The notes beneath the pieces were generated by a model. The model searched no databases. It was not told the DNA's origin and worked only from the letters and a program-made list of their open reading frames with translations. DNA of 64,000 bases from a virus (taxonomy: Duplodnaviria; Caudoviricetes), in IMG/VR virus record IMGVR_UViG_3300037781_000042, positions 32,001-96,000 of that record; one strand, given 5' to 3'. Of this stretch, positions 7,514 through 49,865 are shown piece by piece (positions within the stretch are counted from its first letter, which is position 1; every line of letters begins with the position of its first letter). Made by a program: the position numbers and the translations under genes.

Positions 7514-7532
7514 TTTTTTATCTAAAATTTTC

Positions 7533-7563
7533 TATAAACTATATATTTCTGCAAAATATATAG
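7533..7563. promoter_or_regulatory. back-to-back divergent late promoters (CTATATATT...AATATATAG)
   Basis: Minus copy 7539-7547 and plus copy 7555-7563 lie between divergent genes; 30 nt are identical to 44865-44894. Confidence 0.65.
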
Positions 7564-39004: not shown

Positions 39005-42000
39005 ATGCAAAAGAATTTATATTTCACATCACCAAATCAGCCTCACTTCATAGAAATTAATAATAATTTTTCTGAAAAGAAAGAGTATAGAATTTATTTT
39101 GAAGGAGAGACTTTAAATTTATTTTTATTAGAAGGAGTATCTATAACTAATTATGATACTTTTGATAATGGATATGTGTTAACAGTAGATGAAGGAGAAT
39201 CTAGGTACTTAGAAATTTATCCAAAATGTGGAGATGTTTCTATTGATGCTTATGTAGATTGTATAATAGAATCTGCAGATCAAGATTTTACAGATATTAA
39301 TAGATTGAATTTAGCTTTAAGAAAAGAGAGATTTGGAAAGAATGTTCCTTTATATTCTACATTTGAAAAGAAATTTAAAGAATTTGAAAAAGAAGAATAT
39401 GAAACTTATGCTTTACAAAATATAAATCCTTTACTTTCTGGAAATGTTAAATTAAGAATAGATTCTAAAAATAAATTATATTTTACTTTATTTGATGAAG
39501 TAACAGAATCTAATAACGATAAATTATATTCAAGAGTAGTAAAAAACGGATCTGATTATTTAAATGAACTAACAAAATTCTTTAAAGATTTAGAAAGAAA
39601 GACTGATAGTTTTTATGAAAATATAGTAGTTGAAAATTACAATTCAAGAGACGGAGCATCTTTAAAATCTCAAATTAGAGATGATATTTATTCTGCAGGT
39701 GCATATAATATTCCTTCAGAAACTCATAAAGAAAAATTTGCAATTTTTGCTCCTTTATATCTTGAAAATAAAATACCTTCTAAGTTTGTAATTTTTAAAA
39801 GAGAAAAAGTAAATGATTTAAAAAATTCTGAATTATTTAAAGATTTAACAATTGTAAAAAGTTTTGATTTATCTAAAAATTCAGAGTTAGGAAAGTTTAT
39901 AGATAGAACAAAAGAAACTATAAATTTTGAAAAACCTCACGTAAAAAGTGTAATTAATGATAACTCTGTTCTTTTAGAAATAACAGGAATGGATCCAGAA
40001 GCTTCTTCAATTGCTACAGTATATGAAGATATAACTGATTATGCTTTTAAAGAATCTACTATTTTAGATTTTGAATCTTATGTTACTGATACTTATAAAA
40101 GAAGAAAACTTGTTTCTCATAGAATATTAAATTTAGAATTTTTATTTGATGATGATTTAGAAGAAAACGAAATGTATTCGTATTTTGGAATGTATGTAGA
40201 TGATTTAGACATCTCTAAATACGAATTAGATTTAAATCATTATGGAAAAGATGTTTATAATAAATGTACTTTAGGAATTGGAAGTTCTGTAGATTCATTA
40301 AAAGTTTCTACTCAAATACCAGATATTTCAAAGTATATTAATACTAATGACAGAATATTCTATTTAAAAGATGCTTCAAACAATTTTCATAATTTAAAAT
40401 CTACTTCTGAATATGAATTTAAATTAAAAAATTCTACAAGCATTTGTGACTTTGCTAAAAATGTAGATGAACAGGTTGTTATTAAAGATTCAGATATTAT
40501 TAAAGATGCTAAACCTTATGTAAACGTTTCGTTTGATGATAACATTTATTCAAATACACAGTTAGTAATAACTCAAAATACGAATAAATATGAAATAGAT
40601 TTTATAGAAGATGTAGTAACAGTAGATTATTATGAACATTCTCAAATAGAAAATATTTTTCCTATTACTTTAATAGATGATAATACTATTCAAATAGAAG
40701 AATATGTTTATATTCCTGATTCTGAAATAGTAACTTTAATAGATCCAAGTTCTGAAATTTCAGTAGAATCTTCTTATTCTATTAATAGTGGAAGTTATAC
40801 ACAAATTGTATTTTCAGATGCTATCGATTTAAGTTCAATTACACACATTAAAATAATAGAAAAACCTAAACTGAAAGCAGAAGTTACTTTAGGTGTTAAT
40901 TTAGAAGAAACATTAGCTAAATTAGTAGAAAAAGTTTCTTTATTAGATAATTTTCCATTTGAAATAGTTCAAGAAGCAAATGAAATTTTTATATGTTCTA
41001 CTAATAGTTTAAAGTTTAATGTTACTTTAGATACTACTAATTCTTCTACTGATTTATCTAAGATAAAAAGATTCAGTAATGATTTAACGTTAACCGCTTC
41101 TACTGTAGGAGGAGTAACAGTAACTTCTAATGTATCATCTTTTAATTCTGTAAATCTAACAAATGATTATCTTTATCCTATAGATAGTTATTACTCAGAA
41201 TATTTTAATGAAGGAGATTATTTATATGACATTGGTTCAGTTCATTCAGAATCTTTACCAATTGATGAAACTTCTTATACGATAAGATATATGAATGGGT
41301 TAGAAGTAATAAAACTTCCTAAAGAAAAAACTATTAAAAAGATTTATAAACCAAGTTCTTTATGTTTAGGACTTTTTAGTTTTTATGATGTTAGAAGATT
41401 TGATACTCAAATGGTAACAAATGATTTTAATTTCATTAAAGCTGAATATCAGAAACTTTATAAGAAATTTGCTCCTTCTGAAAAATTAGTTCCTAGAATG
41501 ATTTATAAATTGAAAAATGTAGGGAGTATTCCTATTACGGTTTCAGTTAGATATGGAATAGAAGATTCTTGGAAACATACAGAAGTAACTAGATTAACTG
41601 TAGGAGCAAATTCTACTAGACAGTTTTCTACCTTTCTTTCGGATTATAGTTTAACCGAATATAATGAAGATATTGAGTTTAGATATTTTTTAGTAGATGA
41701 TAATGAATTAAGTGGAAACATCTATGCTTATAATTTAAATCTATTTGAAGATCCTGATTTATTAAACTTTGATCCTGAATTTCCAAATACTTCTTATGAT
41801 AGTAAAAAGAAACAAAACGAAATAGATATTCAAAAACAAAATGAAAATCCTGATTTCGTTTACTATCAAGATGCTAGAAGTGAATATTTTAGATTAGAAG
41901 AATATTCAAACGTAGATTCTACAATAGAAGATATTATATCAAATAGAAATGTAAAATGGACAGATTATAAATTCAAAGATTCTAAAGCTCAACCTCATAG

Positions 42001-44758
42001 ATTAAACTTTAGTCCTGCTTTAGGAAAAACCGGATACATGTCTACATTTACAAATTTTGAAAGTTTACCAGAACTTCATCCTCATGAATGGTTTATGATG
42101 GAAGAATTTCCAAGTCACTTATCAGTTTACGAAGGATCAGAAGGAAATTATTTATTTTCAAGAGTTTCTAAGAGTTTACTTTTAGATACTAACTATGACT
42201 ATTTTACAGAATATTTTTCAAATGGTCATTTAGGAGTAGATGAAATAAGTGGAAAAGATTTAAAAATTTCTAGAAAAGATAATTATGGAATTTTTTATAG
42301 ATCTTCTTTAGATGAATATGAAGTTCCTTATAAAGGGGTAAAATATAGATTTAAGTCTGAAACTGATTTAAGTGGATATAAATTTGCAATTGTTCATAGT
42401 ACACGTCCTGATTTAGAATCTAATACACAATCTATAATTGATCATTGTGAGGTACCGGATGTTGGATATGATTGTAAAGATTTAGGAATTTTACCTAAAT
42501 TACAGTATGCAATTGATGATTTAGTATTAGGAGATCAAACTGTAAATATTTCAGTTTCTGTTATAAATTCTGGAACTTCTGTTACTATTCCAGAATTAAC
42601 AAGTACTACAGTAGAAAATTCTGGTTCTTTATTTACTTTAGGACAATTTGGTACTGAATTATTAAATGCTTTAAATAAATGGAAAGCAGCATTTGAAAAT
42701 ATTTATAATACTTCAAATGGATACGGAGGAAACTTAACTATTGCATTTAGTACAAAAACTGAAAATGGAAATTATCCTGTAGGAGAATTTTATATTACAG
42801 ACGATCAGAAAACTACAAGTAAAATAGGAGACATTAGAATTGGAATGGCTAAAATTCCAGATACGGATGTTGCTAAAACTTTATACATTTCTCAATCTGA
42901 TTTTAATTCAAAATTTGATTATGTTACTCCTTCAATAATCATTAATTCAAATGCTATTTTAAGAAAAAATGATGACGTTGCCCCTGAGGCATTTTCATTA
43001 TCTTATATTATGGCACACGAATTGGGACATGCTTTTGGTTTAGGTCACGTAGACAGAGAAGCTTCTTTAATGAAACCTACAATTCAATTTAGTTATGATT
43101 TAGGAAACATAGAAAATGAAGATGATTGTATTATAAGTATTTATGGAGAACCTTTACCTGTAGAAGATAATAGTGTTGATTTCGATTGTTCTTTAAGTAG
43201 ATTTAGAAAGAAAGATTCTTTTGAATTTATAGTAAATGAAACATTTAAAACAATAACACTTAAAATCTGTGTAGACGTTCCTAATTATATCAATTTAGAT
43301 TCTAAAAAATCTTTTGTAGATATGTATGTTTCTAATTCATTAAAAAGAATAGCTTCTTATGACGGTGTTCATACTTTAGAAGGATTAGATTTAAGTATTC
43401 CAATTATAGATCTTTCTATAAAAAATGTTGTTTTAGAAAATGATAATGTTTATGCTTTTGCTAAACAGCATTTAGATTTATTTACAAATGGAGAAAATTC
43501 AGAATATTCTTCTTATAGAATAAGAGATGTTAAAAATAATGAAAATGATTTTACAATAGACTATTTAGCACTTACATATACAAATGTTAATTATACATTA
43601 AAGAAATCTTTTGATAAAACAGGTTCTGTAAATAAAGCATTATTGACTAGAATTAAAGATGGATACGATAGTTCTTTAAATATGAAAATACCTTTATTGA
43701 CTAAAGAGTATTTTGAAGATTCTTATTTTTATAGAATATTAGGAGGAGATTCTATATCTAAAGCAAACTATAAATTAACTTTAGATTATTTAAGTGCAAT
43801 AAGTGAAGAAATTCCAATTGAAGGTTCTGATATAACTTTTGATTTTGATATTCTTCCACTTAAAAACGTAAGACTTGAAAATATTAAAATACCAGTATTA
43901 AAGAATAAAGAAGATGGACCGCATTTTAAATTAGAAGAAGCACAAGTAAATACTTCATTACTTAGAGCAGAAGGTGAATACGATCCGATGACAGATAAAT
44001 TAACTTATTTTTCTTTAAGAGAAGATTATAATTTATCTACATTATTTCAAATAGATTTTTATAAATTGAATACTAAGTTTTTATGGAACCATTTAAACTT
44101 TGCTAAGCATGAAGAGTTAATTAAAAAGATGGGACCTTCTGATCAATTGAAACAAAATATAAAAGAAAATGAATTTTCAATGTATCAAAAAACTCAGAAG
44201 TTTGCAAATAACTTAAAAACTTTATATTCTTCTGTTTTAGATCAAGATTCATATTCTTATTATTCAAATACAAATGAACAAAAGCTTTCGGGATTCTTTG
44301 ATCCATTATTAAATAGAAACTATTTTAATTCTCAACTTATTAATAGTTCTACAGAAATTGATTTAAATATTCTAAGTAAACACGTAACGTTTAATCAAGT
44401 TAAAGAACAATTAACAGTAAACGTAAACGTTAAAGAAGCGTTAAGAGATGAATTACTTTCTTTAATACTTCCTTATTATGAAAGGATATATCCTCTTTCA
44501 ATAGAAGCAAAAATAGAAGATAGTTTAAAAAGATTAATTTTTAATGACTTAGAGAATCTTTATTCAGTCGATAGTATTAACATATTAAGTAAAGATTCTA
44601 TAGAAACTACTTATGTTAATATTTTTGAAAATGATATGATAAGAGATTCTAATTTTAACGTTGAAGATACAAGTAAGGAAATTATTGAATTAAAAAGACC
44701 TTTAGAAAAAGGAAGAAAACTTAAATTTAATATTAAAATTAGTTTTAAGTATATTTAA
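39005..44758 (+). CDS. giant virion-associated protein with internal zinc metallopeptidase (matrixin/M10-like) domain
   Basis: HELGHAFGLGH (43016-43048) plus SLMKP Met-turn; lies in the baseplate gene cluster. Confidence 0.75.
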   Translation: MQKNLYFTSPNQPHFIEINNNFSEKKEYRIYFEGETLNLFLLEGVSITNYDTFDNGYVLTVDEGESRYLEIYPKCGDVSIDAYVDCIIESADQDFTDINRLNLALRKERFGKNVPLYSTFEKKFKEFEKEEYETYALQNINPLLSGNVKLRIDSKNKLYFTLFDEVTESNNDKLYSRVVKNGSDYLNELTKFFKDLERKTDSFYENIVVENYNSRDGASLKSQIRDDIYSAGAYNIPSETHKEKFAIFAPLYLENKIPSKFVIFKREKVNDLKNSELFKDLTIVKSFDLSKNSELGKFIDRTKETINFEKPHVKSVINDNSVLLEITGMDPEASSIATVYEDITDYAFKESTILDFESYVTDTYKRRKLVSHRILNLEFLFDDDLEENEMYSYFGMYVDDLDISKYELDLNHYGKDVYNKCTLGIGSSVDSLKVSTQIPDISKYINTNDRIFYLKDASNNFHNLKSTSEYEFKLKNSTSICDFAKNVDEQVVIKDSDIIKDAKPYVNVSFDDNIYSNTQLVITQNTNKYEIDFIEDVVTVDYYEHSQIENIFPITLIDDNTIQIEEYVYIPDSEIVTLIDPSSEISVESSYSINSGSYTQIVFSDAIDLSSITHIKIIEKPKLKAEVTLGVNLEETLAKLVEKVSLLDNFPFEIVQEANEIFICSTNSLKFNVTLDTTNSSTDLSKIKRFSNDLTLTASTVGGVTVTSNVSSFNSVNLTNDYLYPIDSYYSEYFNEGDYLYDIGSVHSESLPIDETSYTIRYMNGLEVIKLPKEKTIKKIYKPSSLCLGLFSFYDVRRFDTQMVTNDFNFIKAEYQKLYKKFAPSEKLVPRMIYKLKNVGSIPITVSVRYGIEDSWKHTEVTRLTVGANSTRQFSTFLSDYSLTEYNEDIEFRYFLVDDNELSGNIYAYNLNLFEDPDLLNFDPEFPNTSYDSKKKQNEIDIQKQNENPDFVYYQDARSEYFRLEEYSNVDSTIEDIISNRNVKWTDYKFKDSKAQPHRLNFSPALGKTGYMSTFTNFESLPELHPHEWFMMEEFPSHLSVYEGSEGNYLFSRVSKSLLLDTNYDYFTEYFSNGHLGVDEISGKDLKISRKDNYGIFYRSSLDEYEVPYKGVKYRFKSETDLSGYKFAIVHSTRPDLESNTQSIIDHCEVPDVGYDCKDLGILPKLQYAIDDLVLGDQTVNISVSVINSGTSVTIPELTSTTVENSGSLFTLGQFGTELLNALNKWKAAFENIYNTSNGYGGNLTIAFSTKTENGNYPVGEFYITDDQKTTSKIGDIRIGMAKIPDTDVAKTLYISQSDFNSKFDYVTPSIIINSNAILRKNDDVAPEAFSLSYIMAHELGHAFGLGHVDREASLMKPTIQFSYDLGNIENEDDCIISIYGEPLPVEDNSVDFDCSLSRFRKKDSFEFIVNETFKTITLKICVDVPNYINLDSKKSFVDMYVSNSLKRIASYDGVHTLEGLDLSIPIIDLSIKNVVLENDNVYAFAKQHLDLFTNGENSEYSSYRIRDVKNNENDFTIDYLALTYTNVNYTLKKSFDKTGSVNKALLTRIKDGYDSSLNMKIPLLTKEYFEDSYFYRILGGDSISKANYKLTLDYLSAISEEIPIEGSDITFDFDILPLKNVRLENIKIPVLKNKEDGPHFKLEEAQVNTSLLRAEGEYDPMTDKLTYFSLREDYNLSTLFQIDFYKLNTKFLWNHLNFAKHEELIKKMGPSDQLKQNIKENEFSMYQKTQKFANNLKTLYSSVLDQDSYSYYSNTNEQKLSGFFDPLLNRNYFNSQLINSSTEIDLNILSKHVTFNQVKEQLTVNVNVKEALRDELLSLILPYYERIYPLSIEAKIEDSLKRLIFNDLENLYSVDSINILSKDSIETTYVNIFENDMIRDSNFNVEDTSKEIIELKRPLEKGRKLKFNIKISFKYI
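44511..44758 (+). repeat. diverged direct repeat copy A (functional 3' end of 1917-aa gene)
   Basis: 248 nt aligning to 46158-46402. Confidence 0.95.
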
Positions 44759-44848
44759 TAAATTTACACTTTCATTAATAGATACTCCGTTTTCAGAAAC
44801 AAGGGTATTTTCAAAAAGTTGTTCTAATTTAATTTGTAATTTTGTCAT
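44702..44848 (-). pseudogene. orphan 5' fragment of a late gene (MTKLQIKLEQLFENTLVSENGVSINES...)
   Basis: Follows minus-strand late motif at 44871-44879; LFE/VSE/INE processing-like sites; runs antisense into repeat A after ~29 codons. Confidence 0.35.
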
Positions 44849-44864
44849 CTTTTTAATCGTTTTT

Positions 44865-44897
44865 TATAAACTATATATTTCTGCAAAATATATATAG
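44865..44897. promoter_or_regulatory. copy of the divergent late-promoter module directly upstream of tnpB
   Basis: 30 nt identical to 7533-7562. Confidence 0.6.
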
Positions 44898-44900
44898 AGT

Positions 44901-46124
44901 ATGAAGCAGAATAAAGCATATAAATTAAGGATATATCCAAACAAAGAACAAAAAGTTTTACTTGATAAGACTTTTGGTTGCGTGAGGTTTGTTTACAATA
45001 ATGCTTTAGCCTATAAAGAAGAACTTTATGCACATTCTAAACAAAGGTACACTAAGTATGATTCAATAAATGATTTAACTAAAATCAAGAAAATTGAAGA
45101 ATACTCTTGGTTAAAGGAAGTTGATTCAGTTGCTCTTCAGCAGTCACTTATAGATATGGATAGAGCATACCAGAATTTCTTTAAAAATAAAAGAGGATTT
45201 CCAAAATTTAAATCTAAACATGGAAAAAATATTTATAGAACCAATAATATTAGAGGAGCAATTCATACTAAAGGTTCTAAGATAAAGTTACCTAAATTAG
45301 GTTACATTAAATTCAGGGACCCTAGAACCATTGAGGGAAAGATTAAATATGTAACGGTATCTAGGACTCCAACTGGAAAGTATTTTGCTTCAGTTTTGGT
45401 TGAATATGATTTTACGTCTCAGCCAAAAAATAAAATAAACATCTCAAATATTTTTGCTGCCGACATGTCTTGTAAAGACATGATGGTGAGTGAAGAAATG
45501 GAATTTGAAAACCAAAAATTCTATAGAAAAGTACAAAATAAACTAAAAAGGAAACAAAGAAATCTAGCAAGGAAAAAGAAAGGTTCAAACAACAGAAACA
45601 AAGCAAAATTGAAGATTGCAAGATTACATGAAAAGATAAAGAATCAGAGGAAAGAATATCAAAGAAACCTTGCTAACATGTTAGTTTCTAAATTTGATGT
45701 CTTTGTATTTGAAGATTTAAACGTTGAAGGAATAAAGAAATTTAATTCCGGTATTTCTAAAACAATTGCTTCTGATTTTAGTTGGTCAAAATTCCTTTCT
45801 TTTCTTGAATGGAAATGTTTTAAAGAAAACAAGCATTTTATAAAAATAGATAGATTTTTCCCTTCAAGCAAGTTATGTAACGAATGCGGAACTATTAAAG
45901 AAGATTTGTCTTTAAAGGATAGAACGTATACATGTGATTGCGGACACACAATTAATAGAGACATTAATGCTGCTCGTAATATAAAGCGAGAAGGCGTTGG
46001 TGAACTAGTAAAACAAGGAATAAACCTTGTATATAAAAATTCTACTGTCGGCTGGACAGAAAGTTACGCTTGTGGAGATATGACTGAGGTTACAAGGTCA
46101 GCCCAAGAAGTTTCTTATAGTTAA
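44901..46124 (+). CDS. tnpB: TnpB RNA-guided endonuclease (IS200/IS605 family)
   Basis: KAYKLRIYPNKEQ N-terminus, GFPKFKSK, RuvC-I AADMS (D), RuvC-II VFEDLNV (E), zinc finger CNECG/CDCG, RuvC-III RDINAARNI (D). Confidence 0.95.
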   Translation: MKQNKAYKLRIYPNKEQKVLLDKTFGCVRFVYNNALAYKEELYAHSKQRYTKYDSINDLTKIKKIEEYSWLKEVDSVALQQSLIDMDRAYQNFFKNKRGFPKFKSKHGKNIYRTNNIRGAIHTKGSKIKLPKLGYIKFRDPRTIEGKIKYVTVSRTPTGKYFASVLVEYDFTSQPKNKINISNIFAADMSCKDMMVSEEMEFENQKFYRKVQNKLKRKQRNLARKKKGSNNRNKAKLKIARLHEKIKNQRKEYQRNLANMLVSKFDVFVFEDLNVEGIKKFNSGISKTIASDFSWSKFLSFLEWKCFKENKHFIKIDRFFPSSKLCNECGTIKEDLSLKDRTYTCDCGHTINRDINAARNIKREGVGELVKQGINLVYKNSTVGWTESYACGDMTEVTRSAQEVSYS

Positions 46125-46160
46125 AATAAGAAATACAGTATAACTTAGATGATGTGGAAA
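45990..46160 (+). ncRNA. predicted TnpB omegaRNA scaffold plus guide (limits approximate)
   Basis: Right-end-type stems: CTGTC/GACAG (46045-46059), CTTG-T-GG with CCCAAG, and terminal TTTCTTAT/ATAAGAAA hairpin at the tnpB stop. Confidence 0.5.
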
Positions 46161-46402
46161 TAGAAGATAGTTTAAAAAGATTAATTTTCAATGACTTAGA
46201 GAAGCTTTATTCAATTGATAGCATTAACATATTAAGTAAAGATTCTACATCAACAGAGTACACTGAAAGTGATTTAGACTTAATTATAGACTCTAATTTT
46301 AACGTTGAAGATACAAGCAAAGAAATTATTGAATTAAAAAGACCTTTAGAAAAAGGAAGAAAACTTAAATTTAATATTAAAATTAGTTTTAAGTACATTT
46401 AA
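46130..46402 (+). pseudogene. orphaned second allele of the 3' end of the 1917-aa gene (repeat copy B = 46158-46402)
   Basis: Reads EIQYNLDDVEIEDSLKRLIFNDLE...KISFKYI* versus ERIYPLSIEAKIEDSLKRLIFNDLE...KISFKYI* in copy A. Confidence 0.8.
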
Positions 46403-46418
46403 AAAATAAGAAATAAAA

Positions 46419-49400
46419 ATGGCATTAAATTTAAACGAAATAAAAGTAACCGAATCTACTCAAGTATTGGTAGATAAGTTAAATGAAAATTTTCAATTAA
46501 TAGCAAATTCTAATGGAGGACCTGAAGGAAAATCAGGAAATCCTGGAGGTGCTGGATTACCAGGTCCTAGAGGCCCTGTAGGTTTAACAGGTCCGACGGG
46601 TCAAAGAGGATCTAAATGGTGGAACATAGCAAATACTGCTTTACTTCCAAATGCAGCAATTGTAGGAGACTATGCTGTAATATCTACTAACGGAGATTTT
46701 TATGAGCTTAAAAATGATGGGTGGATAAAGCAAGGAACTTTTAATTTTTCTCAAGGATTAACATTTGATTTAGAAGACATAAGTTATACTTCAGCAGATG
46801 GAGAAGCAGAAACAAGTTTAAAAACTTTAATTAATGCTAAGACAAATAATACTTTATTACTTACAAATATAGATAAACCTGATTCTTCATTAGGACTTCA
46901 AATTCCTACACACGATAGTCCAGGAGATTCGTATCCTTTTATTCAAGGAAGTGATTCTCTTTATAAAGATTTATATGACTATAAATTAAAAATTTACAAC
47001 TCAGGTAATTCAGAAGATGATACTACCCAAATGTATGGTCGTCATATTCATTTAGGAAATTCTTTTGCAATGACTCAAAAATCTGGATGGTTAACAAATT
47101 CAGGATTTACTATAGGAGTTGATTTACATATAGATGACATAAATGATACAGGAGAAGGAAGAGAAATTTTATCTATTGAAGGTAGAACATCAGGAAATCC
47201 AGAGCATTTACATAGACTTCAAATTGAAAATGCTGATTTTTGGGTAAATACTTTTAGAATAGGAAAGAACGGAACTACTTCTGTAGGTTTTGCAGATGAT
47301 TATACACCAACACAAAAATTAGAAATAAACGGTGGAATTAGAATAGGAGATACTTCTATTGAAACAGACGGTTCTATTCGATTTAAAGATGGAGAATTTC
47401 AAGGTTTTGATGGAACAGAATGGGTAGATCTTTCAATTACTGCACAAGAAGTAGTTGATTTAATTAAAACAAATCAAGCATCATTTAATGATAAAGTAAT
47501 AGATACTTCAGGAGATGGAGGAGTTATATTTGGCGACATGTCTTCTGTTGGAACATTAAAAGCAGGAGCTGTTAGATATAATTCAGGCACAGGAGATTTT
47601 GAAGGTTACAATGGAACTTCTTGGGTTGTTTTAAATAATAAAGTAAGTTTAGGAAGTACTGGTGGTCCAGGAGAACCTGGTGGTCCAGGCGGAACAGGAA
47701 ATTTTGTAGACGAAAACGGAGATCCAATAAATTCTAAGATTGCTGTAAATACTAATGATCCTTTAAATGCAGGAAATCCTATTTATGAAGGATTAGTATT
47801 AACATCAGAAGACGGATCAGTTACTTTAAATCAAAGTGTATTAGAATCTAAATATTCAGTAGTTGATTTATCATCTAATGGAATATTTGGTGCAGTAGAT
47901 TCAGAAGGAAATCCTATTTCAGTAAAAGGATTTGATATTAATTCAGATGACATTCAAGTAGATAAAAACATTTCTGATGGAAAAATAAACTATCAACTTA
48001 AATTATCTGATTCATCTAAATTTAAAGATGCTGTAAATGGTGCATTTGATCTTAGATCTTCTGATGGAACTGTTATTGCAAATCCACCTTCAGATGAAAA
48101 AACATATTGGGATTTAAAAGTTTCCCCTGGAGCAGGCTTACAAGAAACTCAACCTGCAGCAGCTAGATATACTGGTGATACTGCTACTCCCGATTTAGAA
48201 TATTCAGCTGCTTATGGTGGACATTATTCTTATCTTTCATTTGAAACAAAAGATTTTGATGCAAATTGTAATATTACTTCTAAAGATCCTTTAACTATAG
48301 AAGTAGAAAAAGGACAAAATGGATATTATAGCGTTTCAGCGAGAGTAAGATTTACTATTGATACTTATCCTGGCGGAACTTTGGCATCGGTAAAACTTTG
48401 TGTATTTAAAGATAATGAAGTTATCTCTGTTTTAAATTCTGTAACGACTGGAGATTCTTATGACATTACACATAATAATTCTAAAGAATACGAATTACAA
48501 GGAACCGATTTAGTTGATTTTGCTTGTGATACGCAAGATTGTTCAAACAGTTTTAAAATTGGTGTTGTAGTTGATTTTGGAACTTCTTCTGGGACAGGAA
48601 GCCTTTCAATGGGAGATTCTTCGGTAGCTATTCATAGAATAACATCAGTTACTCAAGATTCTGTAGATGCTTATTTGTTATCATCTAATACAGCATTTAC
48701 TGAAGTTACTTTACATGACGTTTCAAATGTAGAAACAGCAAATCTAGTATCTGTTGTAAATGATGGACATTTAAAACTTGCGTTACCTCAATACATTACG
48801 TATGAAATTTTAGATGATACTTATTTAAAGATAGATGCAAATATAACAGCTTTACAAGCAGCACTAGATCCTAATTCTACAATTTTAACAAATTCTTATT
48901 CTACTATTAGAGTAGATACTTCATTTACTCATAATTCTGATAATGATAGTGAATTAGAATTTATTTCTGGAGATAATGTTAGTTTAAGTTTAACTGATAA
49001 TCAATTAACTATAAACTCTACGGCTCCTAAACCTACAGTACAAAGCGATGGAGCAAATGTTGCTTCTACTTACGACAATATAGATTTTAGTTCAGAATTT
49101 TCAGTTACTGAAGCAGGTGGTAAAGTTTCTGTTTCAATGAATACGAGTAATTCTGGAGGAAAACATAATGTTATTCATTTAAGTACAAATTATTATGGAT
49201 ATTTAAGTACTATTCAATCAGGAACAAATGAAGATATTCAAGCAGGTATTTTAAACTATAATACGTTTTCAAATGCTGCGGCTGCTGGAATTAGATATAG
49301 ATCAGTAGGAGAAGAAATTTTAGATTCTGATTTAGGCGCAATTTCTCATGGAGATTTAACTGGTGGTATTGTATTAGTACCAGAAGAAACTGCTAAATAT

Positions 49401-49865
49401 TCAATATCTACAAACGTTGGAATTGATTTTGTAATGTTTAATGAAGCATTTAGTCCGGTTGTAAATTATACAACAAATGATTTAGGTCACGCTGGAATTG
49501 GTTTATTTAAATTAAGTGGAGGCGGATCATATACAATCAAAACTGGTTTAGGAACTGCATCTGCTTCATTAGTAAAAATGTTAGGATCTGCAAGTACTCC
49601 TATAGATATAATGAGAACTTGGAATAAAAACGGTTCTCCTGATAGAGTAAGTCTTGCAACATGTACTAGAATAGGAGGAACAACTATTTTAGAATTAACA
49701 GAAGATGAAAAATACGTCTTTGGTGTTGTTACTGGACCTGCTCGAACTTATATAGATGTTTATCGTAGAAAATCAAACGAGTTAACCGTTCAGTCTTTAG
49801 GACAAATGGACGATTTTAAAGCTCTATTATATGATGCTGATATTTCAGTTGAAAAAATTCTATAA
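46419..49865 (+). CDS. baseplate/tail structural protein with short collagen tract
   Basis: N-terminal DKLNENF (gp9/gp10-like), GPxG triplets, and two G.(I/V)R(F/Y)....F.G(F/Y).GT.W repeats. Confidence 0.7.
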   Translation: MALNLNEIKVTESTQVLVDKLNENFQLIANSNGGPEGKSGNPGGAGLPGPRGPVGLTGPTGQRGSKWWNIANTALLPNAAIVGDYAVISTNGDFYELKNDGWIKQGTFNFSQGLTFDLEDISYTSADGEAETSLKTLINAKTNNTLLLTNIDKPDSSLGLQIPTHDSPGDSYPFIQGSDSLYKDLYDYKLKIYNSGNSEDDTTQMYGRHIHLGNSFAMTQKSGWLTNSGFTIGVDLHIDDINDTGEGREILSIEGRTSGNPEHLHRLQIENADFWVNTFRIGKNGTTSVGFADDYTPTQKLEINGGIRIGDTSIETDGSIRFKDGEFQGFDGTEWVDLSITAQEVVDLIKTNQASFNDKVIDTSGDGGVIFGDMSSVGTLKAGAVRYNSGTGDFEGYNGTSWVVLNNKVSLGSTGGPGEPGGPGGTGNFVDENGDPINSKIAVNTNDPLNAGNPIYEGLVLTSEDGSVTLNQSVLESKYSVVDLSSNGIFGAVDSEGNPISVKGFDINSDDIQVDKNISDGKINYQLKLSDSSKFKDAVNGAFDLRSSDGTVIANPPSDEKTYWDLKVSPGAGLQETQPAAARYTGDTATPDLEYSAAYGGHYSYLSFETKDFDANCNITSKDPLTIEVEKGQNGYYSVSARVRFTIDTYPGGTLASVKLCVFKDNEVISVLNSVTTGDSYDITHNNSKEYELQGTDLVDFACDTQDCSNSFKIGVVVDFGTSSGTGSLSMGDSSVAIHRITSVTQDSVDAYLLSSNTAFTEVTLHDVSNVETANLVSVVNDGHLKLALPQYITYEILDDTYLKIDANITALQAALDPNSTILTNSYSTIRVDTSFTHNSDNDSELEFISGDNVSLSLTDNQLTINSTAPKPTVQSDGANVASTYDNIDFSSEFSVTEAGGKVSVSMNTSNSGGKHNVIHLSTNYYGYLSTIQSGTNEDIQAGILNYNTFSNAAAAGIRYRSVGEEILDSDLGAISHGDLTGGIVLVPEETAKYSISTNVGIDFVMFNEAFSPVVNYTTNDLGHAGIGLFKLSGGGSYTIKTGLGTASASLVKMLGSASTPIDIMRTWNKNGSPDRVSLATCTRIGGTTILELTEDEKYVFGVVTGPARTYIDVYRRKSNELTVQSLGQMDDFKALLYDADISVEKIL

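Follow-up and report, generated by a model that had tools for sequence, protein, structure and literature searches.

A transposase-free tnpB gene beside a duplicated gene end in a pond jumbo phage: a candidate RNA-guided homing cassette

Here we describe a cassette with a tnpB gene that interrupts a large gene in the genome of a pond jumbo phage. The stretch of DNA that was analysed (the window, 64,000 nt) corresponds to bases 32001–96000 of a 211.6-kb IMG/VR viral contig (IMGVR_UViG_3300037781_000042) with a G+C content of 27% and an estimated completeness of 82%. All positions are those of the window, and features lie on the plus strand unless stated otherwise. According to the listing of open reading frames (ORFs), the interrupted gene as a whole occupies 39005–44758 and encodes 1917 amino acids (aa). 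Pfam places an M10 zincin-like domain at residues 1217–1374 of the protein, and PHROGs contains no family for it. The body of the gene (39005–44488), defined by the ORF and Pfam, is common to an uninterrupted relative, L019. It is followed by a replacement 3' end of the gene (copy A), a spacer (X), tnpB, a short right end and a second, displaced 3' end of the same gene (copy B). The gene had been called a virion gene in a sequence-only reading of the window. This name finds support in the genomic context, namely the neighbouring gp23 capsid gene in the related locus L008, where the counterpart of the 1917-codon gene comes after gp23, and the tail-fibre-like next gene. It finds none in the family searches, since PHROGs returned nothing and Pfam only the M10 zincin.

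The uninterrupted allele, L019, is the fetched DNA of the contig encoding P0127, a 1915-aa member of the 90% protein cluster of this gene. It is a Logan contig of 16,124 nt from a 2025 aquatic metagenome, and it matches the window up to 44488 and then from 46139 onward. The joint skips 1650 nt and leaves three bases, TAT, ambiguous. In L019 the gene is followed by a spacer of 16 nt and the next gene, of 1148 aa, and neither A nor tnpB is present. Over 11.6 kb, L019 and the window backbone are 96.1% identical. The gene body of L019 is 96–98.5% identical to that of the window, with 17 of the 20 changes in the last 689 nt synonymous. At the joint L019 reads in frame ...GAAAGGATA TAT AAT CTA GAT GAT GTG GAA..., which is the B-type sequence. 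Thus, B is the native end of this backbone and the insert 44489–46138 is foreign to it. When L019 is subtracted from the window, a single insert of 1650 nt remains; its parts are, in this order, 270 nt of A, the 142-nt spacer X, tnpB and a right end of 14 nt. It had been proposed that the uninterrupted gene in a relative would carry the B-type end, and L019 indeed has B-type sequence only, neither A alone nor both copies. We also considered that L019 had lost the cassette by recombination between A and B. This was rejected, because such a product would retain the first divergent patch of A, which is absent from L019.

Copy A (44489–44758, 89 codons and a stop) is an in-frame replacement end, absent from L019 and foreign to the backbone. 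Copy B (46139–46402, 87 codons and a stop) is the displaced native end, continuous with the gene body in L019. The duplication of the gene end noticed earlier is therefore real, with its bounds shifted to these positions, where both copies start with the same Tyr codon. As had been stated, B lies immediately after the right end: it starts at the base where the insert stops, 14 nt past the tnpB stop codon. However, the weak homology once seen further upstream (EIQ, 46130–46138) is DNA of the right end and not of the gene, as the uninterrupted relative reads ...ERI/YNLDDVE. The letters cag of the target proposed at that time likewise belong to the right end and not to the naive allele. The ORF listing gives an orphan frame at 46154–46402, and B is still open. 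A protein search with the B stub returned only the stub itself and no other orphaned one.

Outside two divergent patches, A and B are 92–97% identical; there are two one-codon length differences, one in each patch. Over the 89 codons we counted 11 synonymous and 17 non-synonymous differences, and nearly all of the non-synonymous ones fall in the patches. The earlier description of the differences as mostly synonymous with one variable block is thus correct outside the patches, but there are two patches, and overall the non-synonymous changes prevail. Since the differences outside the patches are mostly synonymous, the copies appear to have diverged as working alleles and not to result from a fresh duplication. 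Patch 1 of A (44492–44510), aligned with B, L019, L007 and L008, is a run of 19 nt unlike the B target. It begins 3 nt past the junction, and its counterpart in B has a length of 16 nt. Here A encodes PLSIEAK (YPLSIEAK with the Tyr), while B, L019, L007 (a 60% relative) and L008 (a 39% relative) keep YN[LM][DN]D. Only two places in the duplicate, the junction and the variable block, have segments as divergent as patch 1. Of the 264 nt of B, 13 differ from L019, six of them in one 7-nt cluster, which is about the background level, and A differs from both B and L019 by the two patches with their indels. B is nearer to the L019 gene than A. Judged from these alignments, the divergence of A from B right at the junction is suggestive, not strong.

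A duplicated gene end around a third gene could also be made in the computer, if two strain alleles had been collapsed around tnpB. Several strains are present in the sample, and the de Bruijn unitigs break at the A/B repeat, as such an artefact would require. Against this, an independent JGI contig, L009, has the same layout and order and is 99.9% identical over 11 kb, and Logan unitigs cross every junction: they span 43800–44540 (the gene body into A) and 44722–46395 (the end of A, X, tnpB, the right end and B). The assembly artefact named in the sequence-only reading as a possible refutation is ruled out.

The tnpB gene (44901–46124) encodes a 407-aa ISDra2-like RNA-guided nuclease, as identified by Pfam and by alignment with ISDra2. 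The Pfam matches are HTH_OrfB_IS605 (1.5e-19), OrfB_IS605 (1.5e-17) and Cas12f1-like_TNB (1.5e-20), and the match to ISDra2 TnpB (8BF8/8EXA) has E = 7e-72. Residues D188, E271 and D354 align with D191, E278 and D361 of ISDra2, and the zinc finger CxxC..CxC is present, in agreement with the earlier claim of an intact RuvC triad and zinc finger. Judged from these residues, TnpB looks active. The possibility of a nuclease-dead regulator of the TldR type was rejected, because the catalytic triad and the zinc finger are intact. The gene is single-copy in the 211.6-kb record. Neither Y1 TnpA nor a serine recombinase was found in this record, which is estimated to be 82% complete; the claim that no transposase accompanies tnpB, made for the locus, thus extends to the whole record. 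The relatives L003 and L008 carry tnpA or a tnpA remnant. The closest TnpB from a bacterial genome, in a Tangfeifania metagenome-assembled genome, is only 52% identical and so provides neither a host copy nor a TAM (target-adjacent motif).

Several related tnpB genes were also seen. The JGI protein P0005 is an 83% identical TnpB that ends in ...EVSLSKC, the window protein ending in ...EVSYS. In runs X5 and X7, short contigs about 85% identical to tnpB (44956–45841) represent a second related tnpB in the same ponds. In L008 (7245–8765) a 59%-identical tnpB is flanked by the gp23 capsid gene and an ORF of 96 aa. Upstream of this tnpB lies the decayed 3' remnant of a tnpA; its right end is canonical, and no gene end is duplicated around it.

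Spacer X (44759–44900), delimited by sequence comparison, covers the 142 nt from the stop codon of A to the ATG of tnpB. It contains no tnpA remnant, unlike L008, and no left-end hairpin that would match the right-end hairpin. As there is neither a transposase nor a left end, the element should be unable to move as an IS200/IS605 element does. What X does contain is a phage promoter-like motif (44860–44894), recognized by its recurrence across the genome: a core, ATAAACTATATATTT, with a 9-bp hairpin. The motif ends 6 nt upstream of the tnpB ATG and is identical at 34 of 35 positions to window 7528–7562, which is part of a divergent intergenic region. The core has 29 copies in the genome, four of them exact, compared with 8–18 in Markov shuffles. 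From this recurrence and position, tnpB likely sits behind an apparent phage promoter and is likely expressed during infection. A copy of the motif was also seen near the start of the large gene in L007. Beyond the motif, X has no homologue in the genome or in the fetched relative loci. A minus-strand ORF of 48 aa at 44702–44848, which runs from X into the end of A, was discarded as probably spurious, as it has no family match and no relatives.

At the other side of the cassette, the 3' end of tnpB overlaps a predicted guide-RNA (omegaRNA) scaffold (46009–46138), identified by a consensus fold and a covariance model. In eight loci of this tnpB lineage the 3' end of the ORF has nucleotide blocks in common, and the consensus fold of these loci has 27 pairs, 11 of which show compensatory changes. 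The covariance model R1 was built from seven relatives, with the window left out. It aligns end to end with 46009–46137 (88.6 bits, E = 3e-16), and all five pairs of the terminal hairpin are canonical. When the sequence is cut at 46121, the score falls by 7 bits. Rfam has no family matching this region. The terminal right-end hairpin, supported by the fold and by R1, occupies 46110–46134; its arms are GTTTCTTAT and ATAAGAAAT, and the tnpB stop codon lies in the loop. Its folding z-score is -3.8, and one of 200 shuffles folds as well. In L008 and L012 the element ends 14 nt past the stop codon, with a hairpin of variable sequence that has the stop in its loop and then an invariant TAGTTCA. The other relatives keep the hairpin and a tail ending in TTCA, with stop codons elsewhere. 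The tail of the relatives pairs back to GAAU, which gives a GAAU/GUUC closing helix. Since the left-end hairpin of L012 and L013 matches the right-end hairpin, this is apparently the hairpin that TnpA binds. The insert in the window ends 29 nt past CCCAAGAA, just as the elements of four relatives do (L008, L012, L013 and L002).

The right end also contains one half of a repeat. The 13-mer AAAATAAGAAATA occurs in only two copies in the 211.6 kb, as a genome search showed. The first (46123–46135) lies in the right end, spans the last base of the tnpB stop codon and is followed by CAG and TAT. The second (46403–46415), followed by AAA and ATG, lies in the native spacer of 16 nt that separates the stop codon of B from the next gene, where L019 reads AAAATAAGAAACA. 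The pair could mark a right end that has been truncated, could be left from an older one, or could be due to chance. Its presence allows a different history, in which the tnpB segment (~44759–46121) was first inserted in a donor between a TTTAA stop and the spacer AAAATAAGAAATA. The 13-mer would then belong to the flank of the donor site and begin the guide, B would have been joined later by illegitimate recombination and would have no function, and the guide would aim at the intergenic TTTAA/AAAATAAGAAATA. Indeed, no third copy of the repeat exists in the 211.6 kb and L019 has it natively with a single change (we estimate a chance of about 1e-4 to 1e-3), both copies come after T(T)AA, and TTTAA, a published target of IS605 (PMC13565253), lies directly before spacer X. 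The TAGTTCA tail of the relatives is missing as well, and the window CTTATAG aligns with their CTTTAG loop. Nevertheless, the 13-mer forms part of the hairpin with z = -3.8, at the place where the relatives have theirs, and contributes 7 bits in R1; the insert ends at the conserved distance from CCCAAGAA; three bases, CAG, are left unexplained; and spacer X holds the phage's own promoter motif in place of a left end. Besides, the phage would carry a target of its own guide, a 13/20 match behind TTTAA, and the divergence of A and B exactly at the junction is given no account. The hairpin and its score in R1, the conserved position at which the insert ends, the CAG that has no explanation and a promoter in X that comes from the phage make us rate this history lower, and we consider it improbable.

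TnpB guides are read from the DNA that abuts the right end. By this established rule, the guide would be TATAACTTAGATGATGTGGA, templated by the first bases of B (46139–46158), with an uncertainty of up to 3 nt in its start. The genome contains this sequence only once. Counted from the junction, A agrees with the predicted guide at only 6 of the first 20 positions. The predicted target is preceded by GAAAGGATA, and the candidate position of the TAM, GGATA and then TAT (44484–44491), is the same 5' of the predicted target in the cassette and in the naive alleles. No TAM can be derived from the relatives, as the bases before their left ends disagree. The corresponding site in L019 (5571–5590) differs from the target by two adjacent synonymous changes at window positions 46144 and 46145 (AAC TTA in the window, AAT CTA in L019).

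We assessed how widely the two forms occur. DNA nearly identical to the phage was found in 14 pond metagenome runs, and a small share of it only in two more. Searches of a phage collection (blastn) and of IMG/VR (peptide patterns, with the C-terminus of the 1917-aa gene) gave no close relatives, and scans of viral and metagenome contigs for exact patterns, one of the B junction and one of the common 3' end, were both without a match. In four pond runs the naive joint was not found. The cassette was recovered in three other loci (L009, L010 and L011), identical in sequence and all from one series of pond samples. The window and L009 are otherwise identical over 11 kb, with the exception of 10 single-nucleotide polymorphisms (SNPs) within 43984–44251 (268 nt) and one SNP at 42498. 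The SNP cluster lies about 240 nt upstream of the cassette, and at 43987, 44108 and 44245 it matches L019. It looks like a short recombination patch. A shared cassette with such a cluster upstream fits recombination near the cassette, homing itself being unproven by it.

In runs X5, X7 and X8 the k-mer depth of the tnpB unitigs was 2–2.5 times that of the adjoining phage contigs (42.6 vs 16–20, 14.7 vs 5.5–6.7 and 22.1 vs 5–9), and in X8 one contig joins unrelated sequence to 44713 onward. From the unitig depths and the X8 joint, the cassette may be present in more than one background, although depth per contig is a weak measure.

The uniformity of the cassette can also be read as the sign of a passive relic. 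The arrangement would have arisen once, for example by insertion of an insertion sequence followed by recombination of two related phages, and would then have been inherited vertically, with B a neutral leftover and TnpB perhaps intact but not driving any spread. Every cassette copy seen is identical and comes from one series of pond samples, no run has both forms, the right-end tail is not conserved, and the eight other loci of the tnpB lineage have no such duplicates; all of this would be expected of a relic. On the other hand, B is open and has about background divergence from L019, and tnpB and the RNA scaffold are intact, so either the event is recent or the parts are maintained. Random rearrangement also predicts neither the exact right junction nor a copy A that has diverged at the target. 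We regard a passive relic as unlikely, though it deserves serious consideration.

Taken together, the anatomy is that of a homing-type mobile endonuclease ORF with a foreign C-terminus, in which the nuclease is the RNA-guided TnpB; we lean towards this reading with modest confidence. In this cassette tnpB would be transcribed from the phage promoter, so that TnpB is made during infection, and the 3' end of its mRNA would be processed into a guide RNA that takes its last 16–20 nt from the beginning of B. The TnpB complex would then cut a co-infecting phage with an uninterrupted B-type gene at GGATA/TATAAC.... The phage recombination system would repair the break on the cassette genome, using the gene body as its left homology arm and, on the right, B together with the next gene. 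Such repair would copy A, tnpB and the right end into the rival and would recreate exactly the layout observed. The carrier itself would be immune for two reasons: A, the end that it expresses, departs from the guide sequence from position 4 onward, and B is preceded by the right end in place of a TAM. As A keeps the gene whole, the invasion would be free of cost. The order suggested earlier, in which insertion into allele B was followed by rescue through A, is one route among several that could have led to this arrangement, and the earlier interpretation of the locus as an RNA-guided homing element is partly supported.

A cut alone, without copying, would also handicap rival phages. It is conceivable, therefore, that the cassette is a weapon only: the guide would target the B-type genes of rivals, the gain would be killing or exclusion (localized marker exclusion), and the cassette would not be copied. 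The same anatomy would serve this purpose, and phage homing endonucleases are known to kill competitors when gene conversion is inefficient (PMC13565253). However, the long homology arms beside the cut site are 96–97% identical to L019 on both sides and the phage genome encodes a recombinase of the RecA/UvsX family, so that repair on the cassette genome, and hence copying, is to be expected. We consider exclusion without copying to be very improbable.

A number of observations weigh against the homing cassette. The right end in the window reads ACAG, and both TAGTTCA and the GAAU/GUUC closing helix are absent; given the lost tail and helix, the guide RNA may be impaired. The second 13-mer would agree with a right end that was truncated and then joined to intergenic DNA of a donor. 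Upstream of the predicted target stands GGATA, unlike the T-rich TAMs named for IS605, IS608 and ISDra2 (PMC13565253). The only naive relative found, L019, carries its two changes at the predicted seed positions 6–7, and with these changes it may not be cut by TnpB; they could be ordinary divergence or an escape from cutting. None of the eight other loci of this tnpB lineage (L008 and seven more) has flanking duplicates. That patch 1 coincides with the junction is only moderately improbable by chance, as 7–14% of the segments are as divergent. Finally, in eight pond and aquatic runs either the cassette or the naive form was present, never both, and no conversion in progress was seen.

Downstream of B lies the next gene (46419–49865), identified as an ORF of 1148 aa with collagen-like repeats and weak matches to tail fibres. 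It includes a hypervariable kilobase (48001–49000), which is 13.5% divergent from L019, compared with 2–5% elsewhere. In L007 an 86-aa ORF stands after the large gene. It was examined as a B-like stub and rejected, since this small gene is unrelated.

So far, the discussion of TnpA-independent homing into a homologous replicon has been confined to theory and to plasmids (PMC13565253). If our reading is true, the cassette is a natural RNA-guided homing element that acts between co-infecting viruses. It would link three kinds of system, homing endonucleases with a carried C-terminus, transposon-borne guide nucleases and engineered cleave-and-rescue drives, and it would help to explain why solo tnpB genes are frequent in phage genomes. 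The target of such a drive would be rewritten automatically whenever recombination set the right end before a new gene segment. More generally, TnpB cassettes with a spare gene end that has diverged at the target might form a natural, transposase-free class of RNA-guided phage drives, which cut a rival, copy themselves in and keep the gene; this generalization is tentative and may well fail. The window and L019 constitute a defined natural pair of alleles, which makes the idea directly testable. In the literature searched, we found no description of a TnpB cassette that carries a gene end.

The nearest relatives of the nuclease itself are the TnpB proteins of IS200/IS605 elements (ISDra2; 8EXA, 8BF8, 8H1J). 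They share with the cassette the protein family, the catalytic residues, a scaffold that overlaps the 3' end of the ORF and a guide taken from the DNA abutting the right end, as well as the proposed cutting of the empty site followed by recombinational copying. In contrast to them, the cassette lacks TnpA, a left end and the canonical tail of the right end; it lies inside a coding region with a replacement for the displaced part, and its empty site is in another phage and not on a sister chromosome. TnpB supports the retention of its own transposon after excision, and on plasmids a TnpA-independent 'non-restorative homing' has been described (PMC10055086; PMC13565253). A 2026 review treats such homing of TnpB into co-infecting phages or plasmids as theoretical, with evidence from plasmids (PMC13565253).

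The cassette also resembles the endonucleases SegF, SegG and MobE of T-even phages, which act in intronless homing and localized marker exclusion. In both cases a nuclease gene resides in a structural or replication module of a phage, and the proposed course of events is the same: the rival allele is cut in co-infection, neighbouring DNA is co-converted, and sequence differences provide self-immunity. The T-even enzymes differ in that they recognise DNA by protein contacts and sit between genes, with no duplicated gene end. Synthetic Cleave-and-Rescue (ClvR) drives follow the same logic as the cassette, as they combine a nuclease against the wild-type gene with a linked, recoded copy that is not cut. 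Unlike the proposed phage cassette, ClvR, which is engineered from Cas9 and several guides, owes its spread to the killing of non-carriers, and no copy of it enters the cut site.

The closest parallel in architecture comes from fungal mitochondria, where mobile endonuclease ORFs (mORFs) with a foreign C-terminus are known in atp6 of Allomyces macrogynus and in atp6, atp9, cox2 and nad3 of Glomus (PMC3630166). There, as here, a gene core is followed by an in-frame foreign C-terminus, an endonuclease gene and the displaced native C-terminus. The displaced copy is again nearer to the gene of the relative than the inserted copy is, and a close relative has an insertion-free allele. The fungal endonuclease is fused in frame, whereas tnpB is a separate ORF behind a promoter-like motif. 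The nuclease of the fungal mORFs is of the LAGLIDADG or GIY-YIG type, and here it is the RNA-guided TnpB, in a bacteriophage. Thus, with an RNA-guided nuclease, target recognition would be set by the displaced gene end itself.

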